Notes: generated by a model from the sequence alone, not told the origin. A DNA stretch of 64,000 nt from Terriglobia bacterium (GCA_036496425.1 DASXLG010000304.1:7919-71918); one strand, 5' to 3'. Positions 3,846 to 56,783 are shown, counted from the stretch's first letter. Program-made: numbers and translations.

Positions 3846-4260
3846 ACGCGTGCAGTGCTGGAAATGGCTTAGCAGCGTTGCATCCCCGATTCCAGCGCCG
3901 GAAATGGTTGAGCAGTGCTGCACCGCCGATTGCTGTGTAGGAAATGATTGAGCAGTGTTGCATCGGCGATTGCAGTGCAGCAGAAGATTCAGCAGTGCTG
4001 CATCCCCGGTTGCAAGGCGGCAAATGGTTCAGCAGCGCTGCATCGCCGATTGCAGTGAAGCAAACGATTTAGCAATGCTGCATCGCCCGTTGCAGCACTG
4101 CAAATGCCGGAGCAGCCTTGCAGCCTGCTTTGCGCCGCTGCAAAAGGTTTAGCAGTACTGCTTCGGCAGATGCAGCGCAGCATCCGGTTTTGCAACGCTG
4201 CATCGGCAATAGCAGTCTTGGAAATGATTCTGCAGCACTGCATCGCCATTTCCCGGATAA
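3846..4260. repeat. Tandem array of ~10 degenerate copies of a 40-bp unit (approx. GAAATGGTTGAGCAGTGCTGCATCGCCGATTGCAGTGCAG); non-coding minisatellite in a divergent intergenic region
   Basis: Units phased exactly every 40 bp from 3861 to 4260 (a partial unit at 3846-3860); all positions are similarly conserved, so there is no spacer alternation. Both strands carry short mirror ORFs with repeated peptides, which are artefacts. Confidence 0.85.
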
Positions 4261-4291: not shown

Positions 4292-4330
4292 CGCAACCTA
4301 CAGGTTGCGGACCGCAACCTGTAGGTTGCG
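4292..4330. promoter_or_regulatory. Two adjacent 18-bp palindromes, CGCAACCTACAGGTTGCG-GAC-CGCAACCTGTAGGTTGCG; candidate enhancer/UAS or operator
   Basis: Each element has perfect 8-bp arms around a 2-nt centre, and the two are reverse complements of each other. They lie ~75 bp upstream of a candidate sigma-54 -24 element and ~150 bp upstream of the FN3 gene start. Confidence 0.45.
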
Positions 4331-4479: not shown

Positions 4480-5121
4480 ATGACAAAGACAATACCGATC
4501 AAAGCCTTGCTGGGTTTCAGGAGAAACTCAGCGAATGATGTACTCGCCCGGGTAAACGCCGTTCTCGGCGGGGTATTCACCGATACGGTCGACTATCCCA
4601 ACCCGTCTATCGATCTGGCGACGCTGAAATCGCAAGCCGATGCACTGTCGGCCGGCATTTCGGCGGCGTTGGACGGCGGCAAGAGAGCCATTGCCGAACG
4701 GGAACATCAGAAGGAGATCGTGATCAAGTCGTTGCGTCAAATCGGACACTACGTCGAGGAGAACTGCAAGGACGACATGACGATCTTCCTGAAGAGCGGA
4801 TACGACGTGGTCTCCACGACACGTGTTCCGGTTGCTCCGTTGTCGGATTCGATCCGCAAGATCGTTCCGGCCAACAACAGCGGCCAGATGCTCGTAACGC
4901 TCATCGCTCAGGCGGCCGCGCTCAGCTATGTTTTGCGCTGGGCTCCGGTCGCTGCGGGCGGGATGCCGGGAAACTGGACCGAGCAGCCGGTGGGCACCAC
5001 ACGCCCGCCGGCGCTGGTAACCGGTTTGACGCCGGGCACGGCCTACGCTTTCCAGGTCCGTGCCGTCACGAAGGCCGGTTATACCGACTGGCGTGAGTCC
5101 GTCACGCGGATCGCGATCTAG
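4480..5121 (+). CDS. Hypothetical protein with a C-terminal fibronectin type III-like domain
   Basis: The track ORF 4438..5121 is trimmed to MTKTIPIK, which has an RBS (GGAGGGAATATG). C-terminal LTPGTAYAFQVRAVTKAGYTDW is an FN3-like signature. No signal peptide. Confidence 0.65.
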   Translation: MTKTIPIKALLGFRRNSANDVLARVNAVLGGVFTDTVDYPNPSIDLATLKSQADALSAGISAALDGGKRAIAEREHQKEIVIKSLRQIGHYVEENCKDDMTIFLKSGYDVVSTTRVPVAPLSDSIRKIVPANNSGQMLVTLIAQAAALSYVLRWAPVAAGGMPGNWTEQPVGTTRPPALVTGLTPGTAYAFQVRAVTKAGYTDWRESVTRIAI

Positions 5122-5131
5122 ATCCGTTTGA

Positions 5132-5177
5132 CATGTTAGAGGGGAGCGGGTGTGCACGCCCGCTTCCCTCTAACATG
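5132..5177 (+). terminator. Long GC-rich hairpin (~21-bp stem, 2 mismatches / G:U) immediately 3' of the FN3 gene; putative terminator without a clear U-tract
   Basis: CATGTTAGAGGGGAGCGGGTG-TG-CACGCCCGCTTCCCTCTAACATG starting 11 nt after the stop codon. Confidence 0.45.
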
Positions 5178-5909: not shown

Positions 5910-6376
5910 GAATTCACCTCGAATCACGCCTGCCTATGGGCAGTTCTGGATAATTCGGTGTCTGTCCCCGGAATTCGAAATGCCGAGAAGGCGGAAGAAA
6001 TCGCCGTCGACTTCGTGACCGAGGCGGAATTGGAGCGGTATGTTCGGACCTTCGCGAATGCGGCGTTGACATAATCCATCGCGGCAAGGTCGGAGAAGGA
6101 TCGCGTGTTCCGGCAGAAATCGTCGAACTCGGGATAGGACATCGAGGATTCGCCGATCCCGCGAACCGGGAAGAACTGACGGCGGCGCCGATCATTCGGA
6201 GCGTGACGACTTGGGAAGGGTTGGGAACCGGGAGCGGCCGGAAGACCAGGCCGTTTGCGACGCTGAAGATGACGGAATTCGCGCCGATTGCCAACGCGAT
6301 GGAAGAGCTCTGCGGTCATGGCAAAGCCCGGAGATTGCCAGAGGGCGCGGAGGGCAAATTTGAAATCATTCAGCAT
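5910..6376 (-). pseudogene. 5' remnant of an ADOP-type (FtsX/MacB-like) ABC transporter permease gene; about 150 codons with two frameshifts, then truncated
   Basis: ORF 5924..6376 begins MLNDFKFALRALWQSPGF (characteristic ADOP N-terminus). ORF 5914..6294 in another frame holds IGANSVIFSVANGLVFRPLPVPNP. SYPEFDDFCRNTRSFSDLAA returns in the first frame. A full-length ADOP gene is ~2.4 kb. Confidence 0.5.
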
Positions 6377-6392
6377 CGGGGCATGATAACCG

Positions 6393-6553
6393 ATCGGGTC
6401 ATTGGGTCATCTGGTCAGGTACATGTGACGTTCGACATTGGACATTTCACATATGACATATGGGAAACCGTCCCCAATGTCACATGTCAAACGTCCCATG
6501 TCGAACGTCAAATGTACTTGACCAGATGACCCAACCACCAGATAACCCAATCC
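6393..6553. repeat. ~160-bp near-perfect palindromic element (MITE/REP-like) with ~35-bp terminal inverted repeats and internal GACAT / CACATGT repeats
   Basis: GGGTCATCTGGTCAGGTACATGTGACGTTCGACAT ... ATGTCGAACGTCAAATGTACTTGACCAGATGACCC (2 mismatches). The track ORFs 6203..6529(+) and 6407..6619(-) both end in ...MYLTR, which is a palindrome artefact. Confidence 0.6.
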
Positions 6554-6612: not shown

Positions 6613-8493
6613 ATGACACGCAGAATCCTTGCCGGCACCGCCGCCATTCTGTTCCTCGTCATCACGAGCTTCACGCTCGGTTCAACCCAGAGTTCCGTCG
6701 CGGATGCGGCCATGAAAGGCGACAAAGCCGCGCTGCGTACCCTGATCCAGCAGAAGGCCGACGTCAACGCGCCGCAGATCGACGGCGCAACCGCTGCGCA
6801 CTGGGCTGTATATAAGGATGACCTCGAGATGCTTGACCTGCTCATCGGCGCGGGCGCGCGCGTCAACGTCGCGAATCGCGAAGGCGCGACGCCGCTGCAC
6901 ATGGCAGCGCTTTACGGCGATGCGCGTATCGTCGAAAGACTTCTGAAGGCCGCAGCCGATCCGCGCCAGAAAGGACCCGCGGGTGAAACGCTGCTGATGC
7001 TCGCTGCGCACAACGGGAATCCCGGCGTGGTCAAACTCCTGATCGTGGCCGGGGCCGACGTCAACGCTCGCGAGCCGCTCCGCGGAACGACCGCGTTGAT
7101 GTGGGCTGTCGAACAGAAACATCCCGAAGCGGTGAAAGCGCTCCTTGACGGAGGCGCCGATTTTGCCGCGAAGTCCGCCGGGGCCGGTCTGCCGCGAAAC
7201 TACATGACCGGAAAGGTGAATACCGCCGCGGTTCAAACTGCCGCCGAGCGGCAGATGCGCGCCTCCGCTGCGGGCCGGAGTTATGAAGAACAGCTGAAGC
7301 TCGAAGGCGTTGGCGGACGTTTTGGCGGAACGGATCGAACGCAGCTTCGCATCGGCCAACCCGGCGCCGGGCAAGCGCCGGCCGGACAGCGCGGCGGAGG
7401 CCAGCGCGGAGCCGGACAGCGCGGGAATGCGACGGCGGCGGCCGGAGCCGAAGGCGCCGCAGCAGGCGCGGCGGGAGATCAGGCGGACCAGGATTTCGTC
7501 TTTGCGGGCCTCGTCGGAACGGGCGGCGGCGGCTTGACCGCTCTCGTGCTCGCGGCGCGCGAAGGCGATCTCGAGTCGGCGAAACTTCTGCTCGACAAGG
7601 GAGCGGATATCAACCAGGTCACTGAATACGGCTGGACGCCGCTTCTCACGGCAACAAATAACCGGCACTACCAGCTTGCCGAGTATCTGATCGGGCGCGG
7701 CGCCAACGTCAATCTTGCAAATAAGGGAATGTGGACGCCGCTGTACCTTGCGACGGATAACCGCAACATCGAGGGCGGAGACTTTCCGGTTCCGAAGCCC
7801 GATCTGGATAACCTCGAGTTCATCAAGTACCTCCTCGACCACGGCGCCAATCCGAACGTGCGCGCCAAGGACAACACGCTGACGCGGACGATCTTCACCA
7901 TGCAGTGGTTCTTCGAGGCCGGCGCCACGCCGTTCGTGCGCGCAGCGCAGTCAGGCGACCTGGAACTGCTGAAGCTGCTGGTGAAGTACGGCGCCGATCC
8001 GATGCTCAAAACCGATTTCGCCGACACGGCACTCACAGCGGCCGCCGGAATCGGATGGGTGGAAGGCGTCACGTATGAGCACTCGCCGGAAGAGAACGCC
8101 GCGACCGTGAAGTATCTGCTCGAACTCGGGCTCGATCCGAACGCGGCCAATCAGGATGGACGCACGCCACTGATGGGCGCGGCGCTTAAGGGACGCAGCG
8201 GCGTAGTGCAAATGCTCGTGGATCACGGCGCGAAACTCGATCAGCGGGACAAGGGAAGCCGGGATACAGACACTGTGGTTTCGGTGAATGCGGGGCATAC
8301 CTGGCAAGCGGTGGATTATGCCGACGGTCTTGTGCGTGTGGGTGTGCAGTCTGCGATCGCAAGGCCCGAGACGGGGGCGCTGATCCGGAAGATGATGGCG
8401 GAGCGGAATATGGCTTTCCCGCCCTCGAATCGCACGGTGTATTCGGTGTGCGTGGTCGAGCTGTGCAAGGAGCGGGTCCCGGTCGAGAAATAA
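6613..8493 (+). CDS. Secreted ankyrin-repeat protein with a Gly/Gln/Ala low-complexity linker
   Basis: Start set at MTRRILAGTAAILFLVITSF (signal peptide; RBS AGGAGA). Multiple ankyrin consensus blocks (GATPLHMAA, GETLLMLAAHNGN, GWTPLLTA, GRTPLMGAA). Linker GQPGAGQAPAGQRGGGQRGAGQRG. Confidence 0.85.
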   Translation: MTRRILAGTAAILFLVITSFTLGSTQSSVADAAMKGDKAALRTLIQQKADVNAPQIDGATAAHWAVYKDDLEMLDLLIGAGARVNVANREGATPLHMAALYGDARIVERLLKAAADPRQKGPAGETLLMLAAHNGNPGVVKLLIVAGADVNAREPLRGTTALMWAVEQKHPEAVKALLDGGADFAAKSAGAGLPRNYMTGKVNTAAVQTAAERQMRASAAGRSYEEQLKLEGVGGRFGGTDRTQLRIGQPGAGQAPAGQRGGGQRGAGQRGNATAAAGAEGAAAGAAGDQADQDFVFAGLVGTGGGGLTALVLAAREGDLESAKLLLDKGADINQVTEYGWTPLLTATNNRHYQLAEYLIGRGANVNLANKGMWTPLYLATDNRNIEGGDFPVPKPDLDNLEFIKYLLDHGANPNVRAKDNTLTRTIFTMQWFFEAGATPFVRAAQSGDLELLKLLVKYGADPMLKTDFADTALTAAAGIGWVEGVTYEHSPEENAATVKYLLELGLDPNAANQDGRTPLMGAALKGRSGVVQMLVDHGAKLDQRDKGSRDTDTVVSVNAGHTWQAVDYADGLVRVGVQSAIARPETGALIRKMMAERNMAFPPSNRTVYSVCVVELCKERVPVEK

Positions 8494-8578
8494 ATATTGG
8501 AAATTCGAAATTGGAGGTTGGAAATTGAAATCGGATTTCCAATTTCGGATTTCCAATTTCGAATCTCCAATAGGTCTT
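8494..8578 (+). terminator. AT-rich compound hairpin element directly after the ankyrin gene stop; member of a 3-copy family with ends TTGGAAATT...AATCTCCAATAGGTCTT
   Basis: ~70% AT in a ~60% GC context. Stems TTGGAAAT/ATTTCCAA. The same termini are seen at 15094..15179, and related ones at 55803..55897. Confidence 0.5.
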
Positions 8579-8597
8579 GTGCTATCGTCAGGCGCTT

Positions 8598-10355
8598 ATG
8601 CCGTTCGACGATTTGCAGCAGTTTGTTCAGCACCTAGAGGCCGGCGGCCAGCTCAAGCGCGTGCGCGCCGAGGTCGATCCGGAACTCGAAGTCACTGAAA
8701 TTACTCAGCGCGTTCTGCGGGAGGGTGGCCCGGCGCTGCTTTTCGAAAATCCCAAGGGCTCGCGCACGCCACTCCTGATGAATCTCTTCGGTACGACTCG
8801 GCGTGTCAATGACGCGCTTGGCGGAGATCCGGCGCAGATCGGCGCCGAATTATTTCAGGCGATCCAGCGCGTCAATCCGCCATCGCTCAAAGGTCTCTGG
8901 CAGTCTCGAAGTTTGATCAAGCGCGGTCTCACGACGCATCCTAAGAAGGTCGGCTCCGCCATTTCACAGCAAGTCGTCGAGGCCCCCGACCTGAATCGTC
9001 TTCCCATCCTCAAGTGCTGGCCGGGCGACGGCGGGCGCTTCATCACGTACGGGATGGTCCTCACGCAGGATCCCAACACGCAGCGGCGGAATCTCGGCCT
9101 CTACCGTCTTCAGGTTTTCGGCAGCGGCACCACGGGCATGCATTGGCAAAGCATGAAAGGCGGCCGCGGGCACTACTGGCATGCGGAAGCCGCGGGCAAG
9201 GATCTGGAAACCGCCGTCATTATCGGAGGTGATCCGATCCTGATGATTGCGGCGATCCTCCCGCTCCCGGAGGACGTCGATGAACTCGCGTTCGCCGGAT
9301 TTCTGCGCGGCCGCAGCATCGGCCTGGCGCGCGCGAAGACACTGGATATGCTCGTGCCCGCGAACGCCGAGTTTGTCTTCGAAGGCGTCGTGCCCAAGGG
9401 TGTGCGTAAGCTCGAAGGCCCGTTCGGCGATCACTTCGGACACTATTCGGAGGCGGCCGAGTTTCCAGTCTTTCAGATCCGGAAAGTGACGCATCGTCGG
9501 AATCCGATTTACGTGGCGACGGTCGTCGGCAAGCCGCCGCAGGAGGACAAGTTTCTCGGCATCGCCGCGGGACAGATGGTCGGTCCGCTGATCAAGCTGA
9601 TCAATCCGAACATCGTGGACATGTGCGCGTACGTGGGCGCGGGCTTTCACAACCTGCTGGTGGTGTCGCTGGCCGAGCGCCATCCAAAAGAGAACCTCAA
9701 GACCGCGATGTCGCTGCTCGGCACCGGGCAGCTTTCGCTCACGAAGGTGATGGTGCTGGTGAATCGCGGCGTCGATCCTGCGGATTTTCACGCGGTGTTG
9801 AAAGAGATCCGGCTGCGTTTCGATCCGGAAGATCATATGTGGCTGCTGCCGTTCATGCCGCTGGACACGCTGGATTTCACGTCGTTCAAGATGCACGTGG
9901 GCAGCAAGCTGATCATCAATGCCGCCGGGGCGGACGGGGAAGAGATTCGGAAGCGGCGGGAGCCCGTGCAGGCAATAGATCCCAAGCCGTTCGATGCGCG
10001 GATCGAAGCCTACCGCTGGCTGGAGGGCGCGTTTCTCGTCATCGTGGTGAAAAGCAATCCGCGGGAGGTGCTGGCGAATCTGGTGCGGGCGCCGCTGGAT
10101 GTGCGATTTGTGATTGCCGTGAGCGGCGATGTGGGGCTGGACGACGACGAAAACCTGCAATGGGGCATCTTCACGCGTTTCGACCCGGCTCGCGACATCA
10201 TCGTCACGGAGCAAACTTTTGTTGGAGCAAGACCCGTATATCGAGGTATTGTCGGCATCGACGCAACATGGAAAGAGGGCTATCCCGCCCCGCTGGCGAT
10301 GGATGAATCGGTTGTCCAGTTGGTGGACCGCCGGTGGGGGGAATACTGGAAATAG
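8598..10355 (+). CDS. ubiD: UbiD-family decarboxylase (3-octaprenyl-4-hydroxybenzoate carboxy-lyase-like)
   Basis: 586-aa product with UbiD signature regions (FENPKGS, LGLYRLQV, GGDP..., HFGHY). Confidence 0.85.
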   Translation: MPFDDLQQFVQHLEAGGQLKRVRAEVDPELEVTEITQRVLREGGPALLFENPKGSRTPLLMNLFGTTRRVNDALGGDPAQIGAELFQAIQRVNPPSLKGLWQSRSLIKRGLTTHPKKVGSAISQQVVEAPDLNRLPILKCWPGDGGRFITYGMVLTQDPNTQRRNLGLYRLQVFGSGTTGMHWQSMKGGRGHYWHAEAAGKDLETAVIIGGDPILMIAAILPLPEDVDELAFAGFLRGRSIGLARAKTLDMLVPANAEFVFEGVVPKGVRKLEGPFGDHFGHYSEAAEFPVFQIRKVTHRRNPIYVATVVGKPPQEDKFLGIAAGQMVGPLIKLINPNIVDMCAYVGAGFHNLLVVSLAERHPKENLKTAMSLLGTGQLSLTKVMVLVNRGVDPADFHAVLKEIRLRFDPEDHMWLLPFMPLDTLDFTSFKMHVGSKLIINAAGADGEEIRKRREPVQAIDPKPFDARIEAYRWLEGAFLVIVVKSNPREVLANLVRAPLDVRFVIAVSGDVGLDDDENLQWGIFTRFDPARDIIVTEQTFVGARPVYRGIVGIDATWKEGYPAPLAMDESVVQLVDRRWGEYWK

Positions 10356-11705: not shown

Positions 11706-12732
11706 TACGAAACTCAGTCAATGGCTTGTGATCGGGGCCGGTGTGCTCGCGGCAGCTTTCCTGATGATGACGCCGCCGGTATTTGCGCAGAATGCCCGAG
11801 TCCTCGTCTTGCAACGGAACTTCGTCGAACCGGGAGATCCCGCGCGGGAGTTGTTCAACCATGGGCAGAGCTTATACGATCAGTTCCGCTATCTTGAAGC
11901 CGAGAAGACGTTCCGTGAAGTCGTCGCAAAATACTCCAATAGCAACATTGCGGACAAAGCGGAGTATTACCTGATCCGGACACTCGGCCAACTCGGTAAG
12001 ACGCCTGAGGCCTTGACCCGGGTCAAGGCGTTTCCCAAGACGTATCCCAGGTCGACATGGACGCCGGACGTCGAAGAATTCGCAATGCAGTGGACGGATC
12101 AGGCTCCGGGAGTGGCGCGCTCCATCCTGATTCGCCGCGCTCCCGCATTGACGTTGGCTCCCGCCGATATCCAGGCCGTCAACCAGCAGATCAGCCTGAT
12201 GCAGGAAGCCCTGCGCGTGATGTTTCGCAGCGATGTGACTGACGCCCTCCAGATTACGAATGACCGGCTCAAAACAAACATGGCGGATCCTGTCGCGTTG
12301 TCGGTTCTCGGCATGATTGCGACCACCGCGGCGCCTCAGGGACTGCCGATTCTGGTGGACGTCGCGAAGAACTCGCCGAGCATGCGGGCGCGCAAAGACG
12401 CCATCTACTGGATGAGCCAGGGGCCGGGCGACAAAGACATGACCATCGATACGTTGATGGGCCTGCTTCCAGCGGCGAGCGAAGACACCACCGACGCCGT
12501 AACGTTTTCCCTTGCGCAGATCCGGACCGAGAAGGCCTACAACGCACTCGCCGGCATTGTGTTGGACAAGACGCGGAGCGAAAGTCTCCGCAAGCTGGCG
12601 CTCGTGAGACTGGGACAGAATCATGATCTGCGCGCTAAAGACGCGCTGGAAAATATTACCACCAGCGATACGGATGGCCGCTTCCGCATGGAGGCCCTCC
12701 AGATTCTCGAAGCCCTCCTCAGAAGACGCTGA
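11692..12732 (+). CDS. Secreted hypothetical protein (alpha-helical repeat-like); third gene of the sigma/anti-sigma operon
   Basis: Signal peptide MVRGNTKLSQWLVIGAGVLAAAFLMMTPPVFAQ. Overlaps the anti-sigma 3' end by 14 nt. Confidence 0.6.
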   Translation: MVRGNTKLSQWLVIGAGVLAAAFLMMTPPVFAQNARVLVLQRNFVEPGDPARELFNHGQSLYDQFRYLEAEKTFREVVAKYSNSNIADKAEYYLIRTLGQLGKTPEALTRVKAFPKTYPRSTWTPDVEEFAMQWTDQAPGVARSILIRRAPALTLAPADIQAVNQQISLMQEALRVMFRSDVTDALQITNDRLKTNMADPVALSVLGMIATTAAPQGLPILVDVAKNSPSMRARKDAIYWMSQGPGDKDMTIDTLMGLLPAASEDTTDAVTFSLAQIRTEKAYNALAGIVLDKTRSESLRKLALVRLGQNHDLRAKDALENITTSDTDGRFRMEALQILEALLRRR

Positions 12733-12739
12733 GAAAACA

Positions 12740-12812
12740 GGAACCACAAAAGGCACAAGACGTACAGAAGGCTCTTGTGCCTTTTGCGCTTCTTGTGGTT
12801 CCTTCTTCTTGC
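12740..12812 (+). terminator. Long bipartite hairpin followed by a T-rich tract, between the sigma-operon last gene and pfkB
   Basis: GGAACCACAA-AAGGCACAAG ... CTTGTGCCTT ... TTGTGGTTCC then TTCTTCTT. The hairpin ends one nt before the pfkB ATG. Confidence 0.45.
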
Positions 12813-14782: not shown

Positions 14783-14796
14783 TATACTGTCCGCAT

Positions 14797-15093
14797 ATGG
14801 ACAAAAAAGAGAAGACGATTCGCGTGCAGTGCACGTGCTGCGAAGCCGTACTCACCGTGGACAAAGCCTCCGGCGAGGTTCTCTTCACGGAAAAGCCGAA
14901 AACGACGTCGAAGTTTTCGTTCGAAGATGCATTCCAGAAGGTGAAAAAGGATCAGGAAACCGCGGACGACCGGTTCAAGGAAGCGTTTCTGAAGGAAAAA
15001 GACCGGATGAACGTCATCGACAAGAAGTTCGAAGAGGCGATGAAGCGGAAGGACGAACTGGAAATGCCGATCAAGCCTTTTGATCTGGATTAA
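14797..15093 (+). CDS. Small K/E-rich hypothetical protein with an N-terminal Cys cluster (possible zinc-ribbon)
   Basis: 98-aa ORF; VQCTCCEAVLTV resembles MJ0042-type zinc fingers; no strong RBS. Confidence 0.45.
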   Translation: MDKKEKTIRVQCTCCEAVLTVDKASGEVLFTEKPKTTSKFSFEDAFQKVKKDQETADDRFKEAFLKEKDRMNVIDKKFEEAMKRKDELEMPIKPFDLD

Positions 15094-15179
15094 ATTGGAA
15101 ATTGCATCATTCGAAGTTGCTTCACATTTCAAATATAGAAATGAAGCAACCTCTAATGATGCAATCTCCAATAGGTCTT
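15094..15179. terminator. AT-rich long hairpin element between convergent genes (small protein and pnp); second member of the TTGGAAATT...CTCCAATAGGTCTT family
   Basis: TTGGAAATTGCATCATT...AATGATGCAATCTCCAA outer stem. Inner GTTGCTTCACATTTC/GAAATGAAGCAAC. Confidence 0.5.
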
Positions 15180-15181
15180 AA

Positions 15182-17287
15182 CTACTGTTTCTGTTTCTGA
15201 TCCCGCAGTACGGCCTTCCGCGAGAGTTTGATCTTGTTGCCTTCCAACCCGACAACCTTGACCATCACCTGGTCGCCTTCCGACAACACATCCCGCACGT
15301 TCCGGATACGGTTCTCATCGATCTCCGAAATGTGGAGCAGGCCGTCCGTGCCGGGGAAGATCTCGACGAAGGCGCCGAACTCGGCGATCCGCACGACTTT
15401 CCCGCGATACGTTTTGCCGACTTCGGGGGTCGCGGTCAGGTTTGAGATGATCTCGATCGCCTTCTGAGCCGAAGGGCCGTCGGACGATGCAATGTTGACG
15501 CGGCCGTCATCGGAGACGTCGATCTTCACGCCGGTCTGCTCGATGATCGAACGGATCATCTTGCCGCCGGGTCCGATGACGTCTCGAATCTTGTCGGTCG
15601 GAATCTTCATCGAATAGATTCGCGGCGCGTAGGGCGACATCTGCTCGCTGACCACCGGAATCGCTTCCATCATTTTGTCGAGAATGAACAGCCGGCCTGT
15701 TTTCGCCTGGGCGAGCGCTTCCGACATGATCGCCGACGTCACGCCGGCAATCTTGATGTCCATCTGCAGGGCCGTGATGCCGTCCTTCGTTCCGGCAACT
15801 TTGAAATCCATATCGCCGTAGTGATCTTCGGCGCCCGCAATGTCCGTCAGGACGGCGTAGTTGTCGCCTTCTTTGACGAGGCCCATCGCCACACCGGCCA
15901 CCGGCGCTTTGATCGGAACGCCGGCGTCCATCAGGGCGAGCGTTCCGCCGCAGACAGTAGCCATCGATGACGATCCGTTCGATTCGAGGATGTCCGACAC
16001 GACGCGAATCGTGTACGGGAAATCGTTCTCGTCCGGCATTACCGGGACGAGCGCGCGTTCCGCCAGCGCGCCGTGGCCGATTTCACGGCGTCCGGGGCCG
16101 CGGAGCGGCGAAACTTCGCCGACCGAGAACGGCGGGAAGTTGTAATGCATCATGAAGCTTTTGGTGGATTCGCCCTCGAGCCAGTCGAGGCGCTGCACGT
16201 CCTCGGAGGTTCCGAGCGTGGCCGTGACCAGTGCCTGGGTTTCACCGCGAGTGAAGACGGCGGACCCGTGCGTGCGGGGCAGAACGCGGGTTTCGATCCA
16301 GATTGGACGGATCGTGTCGAACTTGCGGCGGTCGGGCCGTTCGCGCTTGCCGAGGATGTCGTCACGGAAGATTTTTTCTTTCAGGGTACTGAAGATATTT
16401 TTGATCATCTTCAACTTGTCGGCGTCTTCCTCGGCTTCGGGGAAGAGCGCGACGGCCTTTTTCTTCGCGGCGTCGACGAGCTCGTAGCTTTCCAGCTTCT
16501 CGTGCTTATGCGTGTTCAAGGCGTCTTCGAGATCGGCGCGGACGGCGCCTTCGATCTTTTTCGCCATGGCTTCGTCGACGGCCGGTGGAACGACCACCAA
16601 CTTCTTCGGCTGGATCTTCGCCCGCAGTTCCTTTTGTAGCGCGATGATCTGCTTGATGGCCTGGTGGCCGAAGTTGAGCGCTTCGACCATGACTTCTTCG
16701 GAAACCTCGTGCGCACCCGCCTCCACCATGCAGATGCCGTCTTCCATCCCGGCGACAGCCAGGTTCAGCCGGCTGTTTTTGAGTTCGCTGTAAGTGGGGT
16801 TGAGGTAGTAGCGGCCGTCGATCAATCCGACGCGGACTGCCGCGACAGGGTGCTCGAAAGGAATCGCCGAGGTGTATAGCGCGGTGGACGCTCCGACGAT
16901 CGCGTGCATCGACGGATCGATGTCCGTGTCGGCCGAGAGGACCAGCGCGATGACCTGCGTTTCGTTCTTATAACCTTCGGGAAACAACGGCCGGATCGGA
17001 CGGTCGATCATTCTGCTGTTCAAAACTTCGCGTTCGGAAGGCTTGCCTTCGCGTTTGAAGAATCCGCCGGGAATCTTGCCGGCGGCGTAAAAATTTTCAC
17101 GGTAATCGACCGTGAGGGGGAAGAAATCGAGCCCTTCCCGCGGTTCTTTGGCGGCACATGCCGTCACCAGCACTACGGTTTCTCCGTACTTGACGACTGC
17201 GGCGCCATGCGCTTGTTTGGCCAGCTTTCCGATTTCTATCGAGAGCTCCCGCTCTCCGATCATCGTGCTGACTTTGTGGACATTCAT
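15182..17287 (-). CDS. pnp: Polyribonucleotide nucleotidyltransferase (PNPase)
   Basis: 701 aa; two RNase PH-like domains, KH and S1 (GKVVRIAEFGAFVEI) regions; RBS AGGAGA. Confidence 0.95.
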   Translation of the reverse strand: MNVHKVSTMIGERELSIEIGKLAKQAHGAAVVKYGETVVLVTACAAKEPREGLDFFPLTVDYRENFYAAGKIPGGFFKREGKPSEREVLNSRMIDRPIRPLFPEGYKNETQVIALVLSADTDIDPSMHAIVGASTALYTSAIPFEHPVAAVRVGLIDGRYYLNPTYSELKNSRLNLAVAGMEDGICMVEAGAHEVSEEVMVEALNFGHQAIKQIIALQKELRAKIQPKKLVVVPPAVDEAMAKKIEGAVRADLEDALNTHKHEKLESYELVDAAKKKAVALFPEAEEDADKLKMIKNIFSTLKEKIFRDDILGKRERPDRRKFDTIRPIWIETRVLPRTHGSAVFTRGETQALVTATLGTSEDVQRLDWLEGESTKSFMMHYNFPPFSVGEVSPLRGPGRREIGHGALAERALVPVMPDENDFPYTIRVVSDILESNGSSSMATVCGGTLALMDAGVPIKAPVAGVAMGLVKEGDNYAVLTDIAGAEDHYGDMDFKVAGTKDGITALQMDIKIAGVTSAIMSEALAQAKTGRLFILDKMMEAIPVVSEQMSPYAPRIYSMKIPTDKIRDVIGPGGKMIRSIIEQTGVKIDVSDDGRVNIASSDGPSAQKAIEIISNLTATPEVGKTYRGKVVRIAEFGAFVEIFPGTDGLLHISEIDENRIRNVRDVLSEGDQVMVKVVGLEGNKIKLSRKAVLRDQKQKQ

Positions 17288-34506: not shown

Positions 34507-34588
34507 GCCGAAGTGGTGGAACTGGCAGACACACCATCTTGAGGGGGTGGCGCCGCAAGGCGTGCGGGTTCGAATCCCGCCTTCGGCA
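34507..34588 (+). tRNA. tRNA-Leu (anticodon GAG), long variable arm
   Basis: Manual fold: acceptor GCCGAAG/CTTCGGC, anticodon stem CCATC/GGTGG with loop TTGAGGG, variable arm CGCCGCAAGGCGTG, T-arm CGGGTTCGAATCCCG, discriminator A. Sits after secG as with E. coli leuU. Confidence 0.85.
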
Positions 34589-35374: not shown

Positions 35375-35902
35375 ATGACGAAAACGGACTTGACGGCCCA
35401 TCTCGAAGTCATCCGGCAGAACGTAACAGCGGGCCTCGCCGCCCTCGCGGTTCTTTCATCAAAGGAAGCGCGGCCGTTGCTCGAAAATGGTGCGGCTCAG
35501 TTCGGAAATTTCCGCGTGGACTTCTACGAAATCGCTCTCCTTATGAGGGAAGATGAGAAAAAAGCGGCTTTCACCGCGCAGTTCGTCCAGTTGCTGATTC
35601 GAACCCTCGTCCGAGAGCCGTTCGATCTGATCGTTCAGTACTGCGATTCCAGCAGCCAATCGGCCTCGCTAAAACAACAGGATTGGTACAGGTTCGCTCG
35701 CTTCATTCGCGATGCCATTGCCCGCGGTTTCCGTTTCGAATTCAACTCCTTCGACAGGGGGCTGGCCATGCCCGTCGTATGGAAGGACAAGAAGATAACA
35801 GGCGCTCACGATGGCCAGCCTATCGAATTGGATTTCTTCGGCATGTTCGACGCCTGGGCTCTCTTCACAGAGATGAAGGCCTTCGCGGCACGCCTCGCTT
35901 AG
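35375..35902 (+). CDS. Hypothetical protein (175 aa), no recognisable domain
   Basis: Clean ORF divergent from the M50 protease gene. Confidence 0.45.
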   Translation: MTKTDLTAHLEVIRQNVTAGLAALAVLSSKEARPLLENGAAQFGNFRVDFYEIALLMREDEKKAAFTAQFVQLLIRTLVREPFDLIVQYCDSSSQSASLKQQDWYRFARFIRDAIARGFRFEFNSFDRGLAMPVVWKDKKITGAHDGQPIELDFFGMFDAWALFTEMKAFAARLA

Positions 35903-35923: not shown

Positions 35924-36027
35924 TTTAGCCGCAGATGACGCAGATGAAGCGGATGGGGCGCGAACAGGGACTTATGATGCCCCCCCATCCGCGTCATCTG
36001 CGTCATCTGCGGCTAAAACCTCTTTCG
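35924..36027. other. Very long hairpin: ~35-bp stem (1 mismatch) with a ~27-nt loop
   Basis: TTTAGCCGCAGATGACGCAGATGAAGCGGATGGGG ... CCCCATCCGCGTCATCTGCGTCATCTGCGGCTAAA; the track ORF 35935..36150 inside it is an artefact. Confidence 0.5.
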
Positions 36028-54554: not shown

Positions 54555-55787
54555 TTGAAAACAGCTATCATTCTTCATTCGGAATCCGGCATCGTTTTTC
54601 TAGGCGATCCCCGTGTAAACATTGATCCAGGCCGGCACCTGTTCGAGCGCATGACGCAGGTCATGCGCGACACCGGCGCCGGCTGGATCTACTCCGATTC
54701 CATCGGTCATCCCCGCATCAACTATCAAACCGGCAGTATTCGAGACAATTTTGACTTTGGCGCTGTCATTGCAGTGCGCGCCGATGCTTATGAAAAGGGT
54801 GCGGAAACCAACTGGAGCACTCTTTATGATTTGCGCCTGCGCGTCTCCGAGAAATTTCCGATTGTCCGGATTCCGGAGCCGTTGTATTCCGGTTCCGCTG
54901 TAGATACGCGTCCTACAGGTCAGAAGCAGTTTGATTACGTCGATCCGAAAAACCGCGACTACCAGATTGAGATGGAACGTGTCGCGACGGCCCACCTCAA
55001 ACGGATCGGTTCCTATCTGGAGCCGCGCTTTCAGGCCGTACCTCCGCCGGCGGATGCATTTTCGGTTCGAGCCAGCGTCGTCATTCCAGTGCGAAACCGT
55101 GAGCAGACGATTCTCGACGCGGTGACAAGTGCCCTCAATCAAAAAACAGTTTTCAATTACAACGTCATCGTCGTCGATAACCATTCGACGGATCGCACGA
55201 CGGAACTGCTGCGTGGCGTTCGCGACTCCCGTCTCGTGCACCTGATTCCGGACCGCCACGATCTCGGCATTGGCGGTTGCTGGAACGAGGCGCTCTATTC
55301 AGAGCACTGCGGCCGGTATGCTGTTCAACTCGATTCCGATGATCTCTATTCCGGCGAAGAGGTCCTTGCGCGCATCGTCGGTGAACTGGAAGCGGGACCG
55401 TATGCGATGGTGATCGCCTCTTACACCATGGTGGATTTTTCTTTACAGCAGATCCCGCCTGGTTTGATCGATCATCGCGAGTGGACGCGGGAAAACGGCC
55501 GCAACAATGCCCTGCGCATCAACGGTCTCGGCGCGCCCCGCGCGTTCGACACATCGGTGCTGCGCCGGTTCGGTTTCCCGAACGTCAGTTACGGTGAGGA
55601 CTATGCCATGGCTCTGCGTATCAGCCGCGATTTCGATATCGGGCGGATTTACGACTCCGTCTATCTCTGCCGCCGCTGGGAAGGAAACACAGACACGGCG
55701 CTGCCTCTCGAAACAGCGAATCGCTACGACTCCTACAAAGACTGGATCCGCACGATGGAAATCAAGGCAAGGCAGGTGAAGGCGTGA
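54555..55787 (+). CDS. Family 2 glycosyltransferase with an ~170-aa N-terminal extension
   Basis: VVIPVRNREQTILDAV...VIVVDNHSTDRTTELL...DSDD typical of GT2. Confidence 0.75.
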   Translation: MKTAIILHSESGIVFLGDPRVNIDPGRHLFERMTQVMRDTGAGWIYSDSIGHPRINYQTGSIRDNFDFGAVIAVRADAYEKGAETNWSTLYDLRLRVSEKFPIVRIPEPLYSGSAVDTRPTGQKQFDYVDPKNRDYQIEMERVATAHLKRIGSYLEPRFQAVPPPADAFSVRASVVIPVRNREQTILDAVTSALNQKTVFNYNVIVVDNHSTDRTTELLRGVRDSRLVHLIPDRHDLGIGGCWNEALYSEHCGRYAVQLDSDDLYSGEEVLARIVGELEAGPYAMVIASYTMVDFSLQQIPPGLIDHREWTRENGRNNALRINGLGAPRAFDTSVLRRFGFPNVSYGEDYAMALRISRDFDIGRIYDSVYLCRRWEGNTDTALPLETANRYDSYKDWIRTMEIKARQVKA

Positions 55788-55802
55788 AGGCGTGAAGGCG
55801 GG

Positions 55803-55897
55803 TACTTAATTCAAATTGAATCATTGCAAATTGCTTCAATTCTTCAAGTTGAAGCAATGATGCAATGGAGCAATGATGCAATGGTCCAATGTTCTTA
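55803..55897. terminator. AT-rich hairpin element (third member of the family; end GGTCCAATGTTCTTAAC vs CTCCAATAGGTCTTAAC), preceded by a 3x GTGAAGGCG direct repeat
   Basis: CATTGCAAATTGCTTCAA-TTCTT-CAAGTTGAAGCAATGATGCAATG hairpin; tandem GCAATGATGCAATGG x2. Confidence 0.45.
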
Positions 55898-55901
55898 ACC
55901 C

Positions 55902-56783
55902 ATGATTGAAGCTATCGAAACCCTCCATGAAAACCAACTTCGCTCCTGGCCTCGCCTCGCGCGTGGCGTCGAGGGGCTCGCTGAGGCACACACCCGGCCC
56001 GCGGGTATTGACTGGTTCGATGTTTTCATCCGCCATATCCCGCATCGCGTCGCCAGCACCACTGCCGCCGTCGATCGTGAATCTATCCTGAAACGGCCGT
56101 GTTTTCTGTGTTCTGGAAATCTCGACTCTGAAGAACGCGGTATCGCGTTCAGTTCCGGCTATACGATCTACTTCAATCCCTTTCCCATCGTCGATCGACA
56201 TCTGACGATCGTCCATCGCGATCACACGCCACAGCACATCGCCGGAGAAGCCGGCGCCATGCTGGATATCGCGGCGGCACTGCCCGGCTATTTCGTGATC
56301 TATAACGGCCCCGAGTGCGGCGCTTCCGCGCCCGACCACATGCACTTTCAGGCCGGTTCGCGCGAACTGTTTCCCATTGAGAAGGACACGGCCGAGATTC
56401 CGGGAATTGTTGTCCCGGACTATGCCCGAAATGTTCTGATGTTTCGTGATAGGGATCGGTCGCAGCTGATCCGCCGGATCGATCGCGCGATCGAACTGCT
56501 ATCGAATGCGACCCGGAAGGCTCCGGAACCTCTGATCAACATCGCCCTCTTTCACGAGCAGGGCCGATGGACCGTCTATCTGTTCCCTCGAGGTAAACAC
56601 CGGCCTGAAGTTTTTCATACAGGTCAGCTCACGGTGAGCCCCGCGTCCATTGATCTCTGCGGGATTTTTGTGGTTCCATTCGAACGAGATTTTGTTCGAA
56701 TCACCGGTAAAGATATCGCATCGATCTTTCGCGAGGTAACCCTTCCGGACGAGATCTTTAATGAGGTCGCTGCAAAACTATGA
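55902..56783 (+). CDS. HIT-superfamily (GalT / Ap4A-phosphorylase-like) nucleotidyltransferase/phosphorylase of unknown specificity
   Basis: SAPDHMHFQA (HxHxQ histidine-triad-like) and HLTIVHRDH motifs; 4-nt overlap with the next gene. Confidence 0.5.
   Translation: MIEAIETLHENQLRSWPRLARGVEGLAEAHTRPAGIDWFDVFIRHIPHRVASTTAAVDRESILKRPCFLCSGNLDSEERGIAFSSGYTIYFNPFPIVDRHLTIVHRDHTPQHIAGEAGAMLDIAAALPGYFVIYNGPECGASAPDHMHFQAGSRELFPIEKDTAEIPGIVVPDYARNVLMFRDRDRSQLIRRIDRAIELLSNATRKAPEPLINIALFHEQGRWTVYLFPRGKHRPEVFHTGQLTVSPASIDLCGIFVVPFERDFVRITGKDIASIFREVTLPDEIFNEVAAKL

Follow-up and report, generated by a model that had tools for sequence, protein, structure and literature searches.

Three AT-rich hairpins in the genome of an uncultured Terriglobia bacterium (Acidobacteriota), here called e1, e2, and e3, appear to be members of one family of palindromic repeats that resemble REPINs and MITEs, lie just after stop codons, and probably serve as hairpins at transcript 3′ ends; on balance, this is the reading that we consider probable. 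The sequences support the view that the three are homologous copies and not independent terminators, since e1 and e2 have exact 17-mer and 10-mer ends in common, the stems can be aligned over their full length, and a covariance model recovers both e3 and copies outside the window. By "the window" we mean the whole stretch of DNA analyzed, 64,000 nucleotides (GCA_036496425.1, DASXLG010000304.1:7919-71918) that form part of a 127-kb soil-metagenome contig.

Genomic setting and sequence of the hairpins

The genes of the window, among them LPS genes and genes for ECF sigma factors and a beta-barrel receptor with CarboxypepD_reg, agree with an origin in Terriglobia, and a tRNA-Leu (GAG) at 34507-34588 is the sole RNA gene that Rfam or ARAGORN detects in it. 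Element e1 is flanked by an ankyrin-repeat gene (6613-8493, with its TAA stop at 8491-8493 on the plus strand) and by UbiD, which starts at 8598. Element e2 occupies an 88-nt gap between a conserved 98-aa gene on the plus strand and pnp on the minus strand, the latter being the last gene in a rimP-nusA-infB-rbfA-truB-rpsO-pnp string, and e3 is situated between a GT2 glycosyltransferase gene and a DUF4922 gene. Against a GC content of 0.583 for the whole window, e1 and e2 (0.33) and e3 (0.34) stand out as AT-rich, as the original prediction had claimed, and the sequences and coordinates that it gave for the three hairpins were all found. Its placement of the hairpins after plus-strand genes is likewise correct, with e1 and e2 each following a TAA and e3 lying 20 nt past the GT2 stop.

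Fold-back chimeras at palindromes do occur in this data set (on the right side of locus L179 and in the right flank of locus L175), and the hairpins themselves could be imagined to be assembly artefacts of the same kind. We regard the probability of this as negligible. Both e1 and e2 are internal to the 127-kb contig with intact genes on either side, and independent JGI and Logan assemblies give identical sequences for e1 (two samples) and e2 (five samples), which indicates that they are real.

Elements e1 and e2 are hairpins of 78-79 nt with a common 5′ end, ATTGGAAATT, and an exactly shared 3′ 17-mer, AATCTCCAATAGGTCTT. In e1, the stop codon is followed by ATATTGGAAATT...AATCTCCAATAGGTCTT, the last base of which is 8578; the hairpin (8495-8572, plus strand) begins 1 nt further on from the TAA, and outside the stem there is a 3′ tail, AGGTCTT (8573-8579, plus strand), that is conserved in e1, e2, and two copies from elsewhere, L077a and L143. 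In e2, a TAA at 15091-15093 is followed by ATTGGAAATT...AATCTCCAATAGGTCTT with its last base at 15179, the hairpin occupying 15094-15172 and the AGGTCTT tail 15173-15179 on the plus strand, and the pnp stop (TAG, minus strand) is found at 15182-15184. The 17-mer occurs twice in the window, where 2.6e-6 occurrences would be expected by chance, and the 10-mer ATTGGAAATT also occurs twice, compared with an expectation of 0.02. Element e3 (55808-55890, plus strand) is a diverged member that holds CATTGCAAATTGCTTCAA / TTGAAGCAATGATGCAATG as its hairpin core and has the terminal sequence GGTCCAATGTTCTTAAC; its 3′ tail, GTTCTTAACCC (55891-55901, plus strand), can be compared with AGGTCTTAAC of e2 and is followed by the DUF4922 start at 55902. 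The series ATGATGCAAT...TCCAAT...TCTTAAC is common to e3 and e2.

The predicted fold of e1 has an energy of -39.4 kcal/mol on the plus strand and -37.8 kcal/mol on the minus strand (z = -6.3 and -8.3), and that of e2 has -37.6 and -45.9 kcal/mol, respectively (z = -9.1 and -11.1). None of the shuffled sequences (0/200) folded as well as e1 or e2. The fold of e3 is looser, with a z of about -3. Across the window, eight long hairpins (score of at least 16) were found, as compared with none in each of five locally shuffled copies.

Modular structure of the stems

The arms of the hairpins are inverted arrays of degenerate 7-8-nt words with the consensus ATTSGAR. Each arm of e1 contains about five heptamers, the left one reading ATTGGAA ATTCGAA ATTGGAG GTTGGAA ATTGAAA and the right one its complement, and TRF reports a period of 7 with 10 copies and 69% matches for this element (8496-8563). 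For e3, TRF gives a period of 8 with 5.2 copies (55850-55891), and the right arm includes a 16-nt tandem duplication, two copies of AGCAATGATGCAATGG. Relative to e1, e2 possesses an extra word pair, GCATCATT/AATGATGC, with one word in each arm, and its core is GTTGCTTCA/TGAAGCAAC.

A first alignment of the family, A3, was structurally inconsistent and yielded no consensus structure; it was superseded by A5, in which e1-type and e2-type sequences align over their full length with a mean column identity of 79% (60% for e1 versus e2) and differ by whole words inserted symmetrically in both arms. The full-length alignment shows that the stems are modular variants of one sequence and not unrelated hairpins. 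The original prediction had described interiors that differ and stems that vary between conserved ends. The variability is overstated, the interiors being modular and partly common (GTTGCTTCA/TGAAGCAA, ATGATGCAAT). As aligned, the element is bounded by ATTGGARATT...AATYTCCAAT, with ends that are invariant or compensated and a middle that is variable, and the pyrimidine- or U-rich tail (AGGTCTT) is present on one side only. RNAalifold on A5 predicts 21 consensus pairs, three of which have changes on both sides and are thus compensatory. The four e2 orthologues alone, which have few variable paired columns, contain one compensatory pair, a result equalled by 112 of 500 shuffles.

We built a covariance model, R1, from e1, e2, L077a, L143, L185, and L186, with e3 left out of the training set. 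Across the window, R1 scores its training members e1 and e2 at 79.2 and 89 bits, respectively, and its only other match is e3 (22.8 bits, E=0.012); scores in the plus orientation exceed those in the minus orientation by 30-35 bits. Searches of Rfam at both gathering and relaxed thresholds returned only matches to eukaryotic miRNA precursors, with 24-37 bits against thresholds of 70-100.

Further copies outside the window

Among fetched loci that had no part in training, R1 matches L077b (45 bits), L233 (30 bits), and the orthologous copy of e3 in L242/L243 (26.6 bits). A scan of 241 M metagenome records with the 17-mer produced 112 matches, of which only L077a and L143 are real copies. These two are 89% identical, lie on separate contigs of one metagenome, and have different neighbors, a gene for a DUF6152-like/secreted protein in the case of L077a and rho in the case of L143. 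The L077 contig, which also encodes cytochrome c proteins, carries two copies, L077a and L077b, 1.1 kb apart. Locus L233 is a heptamer-array locus and the sole match of two viral-contig scans that is neither a chance match nor coding. At least two organisms thus carry copies, and the sites that these occupy are not orthologous. The expectation of the original prediction that further copies exist, pursued here with the covariance model and the 17-mer, has been borne out.

The copy number of the family may be low. The source contig has three copies in 72.8 kb, with no copy found by a hairpin and motif scan in the extra 8.8 kb of it, and R1 detected no copy in 41 kb of one related genome (L172 and L244) or in 20 kb of another (L177). 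BLAST of the elements against plasmids and phages gave no match. In 185,579 species representatives, the 17-mer scan returned 54 single matches, which is the level expected by chance, and no genome with multiple copies; because the matches are at chance level and only one, L008, is similar, the source species appears to be absent from the representatives.

L008 (2464-2547 of the locus) belongs to a Planctomycetia MAG (JAIOQB010000247.1) and is an AT-rich hairpin with TTGGAGA/TTGGAAT/TTGGTCA heptamers in a contig of 65% GC. It has 27 of 29 nt in common with the tail region of e1 (AATCTCCAATAGGTCTTGyGCTA.CGTC), and this similarity runs on through GTGCTATCGTC, but in L008 the shared sequence lies within the left arm and loop. 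The likeness could reflect spread across phyla, mis-binning, or convergence.

A second repeat family is common to the source organism and the organism of L143. It consists of a motif of ~45 nt, GGGGyGGTCyGTTCAAAGmCGCGmAGCCACCT, with sites in the region of L246:7949-8483 and at L143:~35-80, upstream of the L143 element. The former is a 535-nt intergenic region of the source contig that lies shortly past the end of the window (~64336-64870 in window numbering) and also contains three GC-rich mini-hairpins, CCCCGCCTGAsTyAGGCGGGG.

Filled and empty sites at e3

The spacer between the GT2 and DUF4922 genes is 114 nt long in the window and 92 nt long in an 85%-identical relative (L242/L243), and both spacers hold an e3-type element. 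Neither of two other relatives has an element: one, 82% identical (L244/L245), has a DUF4922 start that overlaps the GT2 stop (ATGA), and the other, 80% identical (the P0156 contig), has a spacer of just 8 nt. With the element missing from both, e3 is most simply read as an insertion that placed about 100-130 nt between genes that were translationally coupled. The left edge of the inserted DNA bears a perfect tandem of 3.1 copies of GTGAAGGC (55776-55800, plus strand) that includes the GT2 stop (55785-55787) and that is missing from the empty site of L244. Comparison of e3 with the empty site revealed no direct repeat, that is, no target-site duplication. At the e1 site, the upstream ankyrin gene is absent in relatives.

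The original prediction had proposed a dispersed cassette or small non-autonomous element as opposed to independent terminators, and this proposal stands insofar as homology (the 17-mer, A5, and R1) and the insertion at e3 speak for it. Copies may arise by copy-and-insert or by conversion, in the manner of REPINs or MITEs, and the most plausible agent would be a single-strand Y1 transposase of the RAYT or TIRYT-like type. A scan of ~45 window proteins found no transposase and no RAYT, no insertion sequence was seen in the window, and a transposase search near L077 and L143 found none. We know of no parent insertion sequence for the Terriglobia family.

Turnover of the hairpin downstream of pnp

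In every relative examined, the spacer that separates the 98-aa gene from pnp (54-132 nt) contains a long near-perfect hairpin; the stems measure about 20-57 bp, the energies range from -35 to -96 kcal/mol, and several of these hairpins are built of 8-9-nt words. A homologue of e2, about 80% identical, is found in only one other lineage, L184-L186. The remaining hairpins are unrelated to e2: L172 (10296-10391), L174 (~725-840), L175, L177 (10295-10393), L181 (~692-745), and L182/L183 (~1039-1103 in L182). In all, the junction holds at least six mutually unrelated sequences. That a hairpin is present at this junction in all relatives despite replacement of its sequence suggests that something there selects for a hairpin. 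Turnover appears to be fast, as L181, the nearest relative by flanking DNA (93%), has a different hairpin. Within L184-L186, the DNA is identical for at least 370 nt upstream, yet the hairpin differs at 12-15 positions. In addition, the copy number of the words differs between strains (L177 versus L180).

Some of the contigs at this junction are chimeric, which calls for caution about hairpin variation in short metagenome contigs. In L179 (3524-3749), the sequence past the hairpin is the reverse complement of the contig's own upstream gene, a fold-back chimera, and in L175 (~1006-1601), the gene joined after the hairpin is not pnp, an assembly artefact. Neither contig was relied on for the junction comparison, and an inverted loop with arm variation in L179 was discounted because the contig is a fold-back chimera.

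Together, the word structure and the strain-level changes in word number point to slippage as the source of variation in the arms. In such a mechanism, the arms would lengthen or shorten by slippage of short words, and intra-strand template switching, a process known from quasi-palindrome correction, would restore their symmetry. Taken further, slippage of the heptamer ATTGGAA together with palindrome-correcting template switching might have grown each hairpin in place as an independent terminator, the likeness among them being convergence. Tandem 7-9-nt words are found in unrelated hairpins of the lineage as well (6402-6534 and 35924-36017 in the window, L177, and L181), the strain difference between L177 and L180 is of the expected kind, and heptameric intergenic SSRs, some of them inverted, vary rapidly in Xanthomonas and Nostoc, where slippage has been proposed as their generator (PMC4692102). 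Growth in place would, however, leave unexplained why 17-27 nt, including the non-repetitive AGGTCTT, are exactly identical at four loci in two organisms and why L077a and L143 are 89% identical at different loci, and the difference at the e3 site is all-or-none (92-114 nt) and not graded. We therefore judge such convergence to be quite unlikely.

A more speculative proposal, which we rate as doubtful, is that the 3′-end hairpins of this Terriglobia lineage constitute a self-renewing, hypervariable class of palindromes subject to slippage, template switching, and overwriting. Their arms would be made from 7-9-nt words and would be overwritten by conversion or insertion faster than the flanking genes change, and the ATTGGAR family would represent one active lineage, possibly driven by Acidobacteria-specific TIRYT transposases. 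The unrelated stems of 20-57 bp at the pnp junction and the 12-15 differences in the hairpin under identical flanks would fit this proposal.

Two further observations concern this region. The sequence GGGGACAG, present in the pnp-site hairpins of L172 and L174, fits the GGGGWSAS motif of TIRYT-flanking inverted repeats (PMC3733652) and is a possible link of these hairpins to Y1 transposases, which we offer as a lead only. In L181 (~355-394, compared with 14783-14796 of the window), an extra 28-nt GC hairpin, GCCGCGGGCTTTATGCCCGCG, separates the TPR gene from the 98-aa gene, so that near relatives differ here by a further small hairpin indel.

Position, orientation, and candidate function

In copies with a clear context (e1, e2, e3, L077a, L077b, L184-L186, and L242), the ATTGGA end lies 0-8 nt (20 nt in e3) past the stop codon of a co-oriented gene, and the AGGTCTT tail is distal. 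All copies lie between called genes, and a convergent gene ends right after the tail of e2 (pnp), L077a (a secreted protein), and L143 (rho). The tails, UAGGUCUU, UAAGUUUUU, UAGGUUUU, and UUGUAUUUU, are U-rich for a genome of 58% GC. From where the elements lie, how they are oriented, their tails, and the constant occupancy of the pnp junction, we infer that they probably act as transcript 3′-end hairpins. Once transcribed, the 30-35-bp stem would stop or pause RNA polymerase, block 3′-exonucleases, or both; e2, after pnp, could act in both directions between convergent genes, and e1 and e3 could be intercistronic brakes or stabilizers inside operons. Should the hairpins indeed define the 3′ ends of transcripts, they would reveal how transcripts are delimited in a GC-rich bacterium that has no evident canonical terminators.

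The tail UAGGUCUU contains four U in eight positions and no clean U-tract, and the stems are 33% GC. A scan for consensus terminators found no site at e1 or e2 and 13 sites in the window as a whole, versus 14.9 in shuffles. Both e1 and e3 lie within apparent operons, and the next start codon is 25 nt away from the end of e1 and 4 nt from that of e3, so an efficient terminator at either place would silence the downstream gene.

This absence of a canonical terminator signature would suit purely selfish palindromic DNA of the REPIN or MITE type, which has no role in host RNA and whose insertions after stop codons are merely tolerated. Neither e1 nor e3 leaves space for a promoter of the downstream gene, e3 has been inserted between genes that are translationally coupled in relatives, where no hairpin is needed, and 61 kb of related genomes contain no member of the family. 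Purely selfish DNA would not be expected to leave a long hairpin at the pnp junction in every lineage even as its sequence is replaced, nor does it readily account for the consistent orientation relative to the upstream gene and the U-rich conserved tail; moreover, e1, e2, L077a, and L143 have kept their ends, whereas drift is seen among the e2 orthologues. We consider a wholly selfish nature improbable, if deserving of attention, and favor repeats of this type that probably function at transcript 3′ ends.

A role at the DNA level seems very unlikely to us. The ATTGGAR arrays might be bound by a protein, or the palindromes might form cruciforms for recombination, replication, or nucleoid organization, and regularly spaced heptamers that are AT-rich where the genome is GC-rich would favor the binding of a protein or easy strand opening. 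The fold energies of the plus and minus strands show no consistent preference, which also speaks against a simple terminator role, and long palindromes are found in divergent promoter regions of this genome too (6402-6534). A strand-symmetric site, however, would not require that every member abut a stop codon in one orientation, and no candidate binding protein or recombinase is encoded nearby. We also considered an integron attC site, a retron msd, a CsrA-binding sRNA, and a 6S RNA terminator upstream of L143, and rejected each for want of its defining partners or motifs.

Comparison with known repeats and terminators

REP, REPIN, and MITE sequences are well studied in Proteobacteria, and the Acidobacteria are among the most abundant and least cultured of soil phyla. 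To our knowledge, small palindromic repeats have hardly been described in this phylum, and the Terriglobia family is a new variant of a familiar bacterial repeat type in a poorly studied phylum.

The REPINs mobilized by RAYTs in Pseudomonas fluorescens SBW25 are likewise extragenic hairpins of about 70-110 nt with several related sub-families in one genome, they combine two conserved inverted ends and a less conserved middle with compensatory changes that keep the stem, and their copies are inherited vertically and drift once fixed (PMC3116915), as e2 and L184-L186 have done. Unlike REPINs, the Terriglobia elements have ends that are not REPs, lacking both the GTAG tag and a short palindrome within, their arms are arrays of heptamer words, they are AT-rich in a GC-rich genome, and no RAYT occurs among the window proteins scanned. 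REPINs number tens to hundreds of copies per genome, compared with the three in 72.8 kb of the source contig. REPs are imperfect palindromes of 20-40 bp with GTAG/CGTC at one end (PMC3733652), whereas the Terriglobia elements measure 78-83 nt with arms of 30-35 bp, and the flank of e1, e2, L077a, and L143 is AGGTCTT, or AAGACCT when read from the opposite strand. The only copy with a GTAG is L077b, 3 nt outside one end.

Closer phylogenetically are the TIR repeats of TIRYTs, as the Acidobacteria have a group of their own among the Y1 transposases associated with TIRs, along with families of TIR repeats that are moderately abundant (PMC3733652). These are long, partly self-complementary inverted repeats in intergenic DNA, and their copies are often close together, as are e1 and e2 (6.6 kb apart) and L077a and L077b. 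The Terriglobia family differs in having neither the GTAG/CGTC tag nor the GGGGWSAS motif of many TIRYT TIRs.

The heptameric SSRs of Calothrix/Nostoc (STRR) and Xanthomonas (GGGAATC) share with the Terriglobia arms the tandem 7-nt intergenic units, sometimes inverted and able to form stem-loops, and they vary extensively in length and sequence between close relatives (PMC4692102). The Terriglobia arrays are by contrast short (about five units), degenerate, and always paired in a palindrome, and the family has conserved ends and a non-repetitive tail and occurs at unrelated loci.

As in Rho-independent terminators, including bidirectional ones, a hairpin directly after the stop codon is followed by a tail containing U, and e2 lies between convergent genes. 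The stems here are 30-35 bp and AT-rich as opposed to 5-14 bp and GC-rich, however, and two of the three copies are intercistronic without room for a downstream promoter.

Bacterial MITEs such as the Correia elements of Neisseria may supply terminators, promoters, or RNase III sites to adjoining genes. Like MITEs, the Terriglobia elements are small (78-95 nt) and non-coding, with terminal inverted repeats of at least 10 nt, and they can be present or absent at orthologous sites, as at the e3 site, where the window and L242/L243 carry the element and L244/L245 and the P0156 contig do not. Unlike MITEs, they show no target-site duplication, the left flanks being T, A, T, and C while the right flank AGGTCTT is conserved, and the whole element is one hairpin in place of TIRs around a unique core.

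The family as now defined, with its covariance model, provides a handle for a census of Terriglobia MAGs in terms of copy number, linkage to Y1 transposases, and use as strain markers, and it explains assembly breaks at such sites in these genomes. The hairpin after pnp, always present but replaced, would offer a natural system for the study of terminator turnover.

Other palindromes in the window and in related genomes

Several other palindromic features were noticed. At 6402-6534, a 133-nt imperfect palindrome made of the 7-nt words TTCGACA TTGGACA TTTCACA TATGACA lies between divergent gene starts (a minus-strand gene at 5924-6376 and the ankyrin gene from 6613), that is, in a promoter region and not at a gene end. 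A GC-rich hairpin of 94 nt at 35924-36017, which begins 22 nt past the stop of a gene ending at 35902, has 35-nt arms that are 97% complementary and is composed of the 9-nt words GCAGATGAC GCAGATGAA GCGGATGGG. The hairpin at 12737-12796 follows a stop at 12732, precedes PfkB, and has 9-nt words that start with ACA, and the one at 5132-5177 follows a stop at 5121 between convergent genes. Upstream of an fn3-domain gene, a tandem array at 3851-4106 has a 40-nt period (or 80/120 nt) with 6.4 copies and 75% matches; after it, at 4292-4330, comes a 39-nt perfect palindromic doublet, CGCAACCTACAGGTTGCGG.

In the related genomes, a near-perfect palindrome of 65 nt and 69% GC at L244:11262-11326 falls within a called SpoIID gene and may be an intragenic palindromic repeat. 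The first part of L172 (1-7736), from a related Terriglobia genome, carries genes for a squalene epoxidase, a squalene/oxidosqualene cyclase, a cytochrome P450, and a Rieske oxygenase along with a 3-beta-HSD-like gene, a cluster that resembles bacterial sterol-synthesis gene sets.
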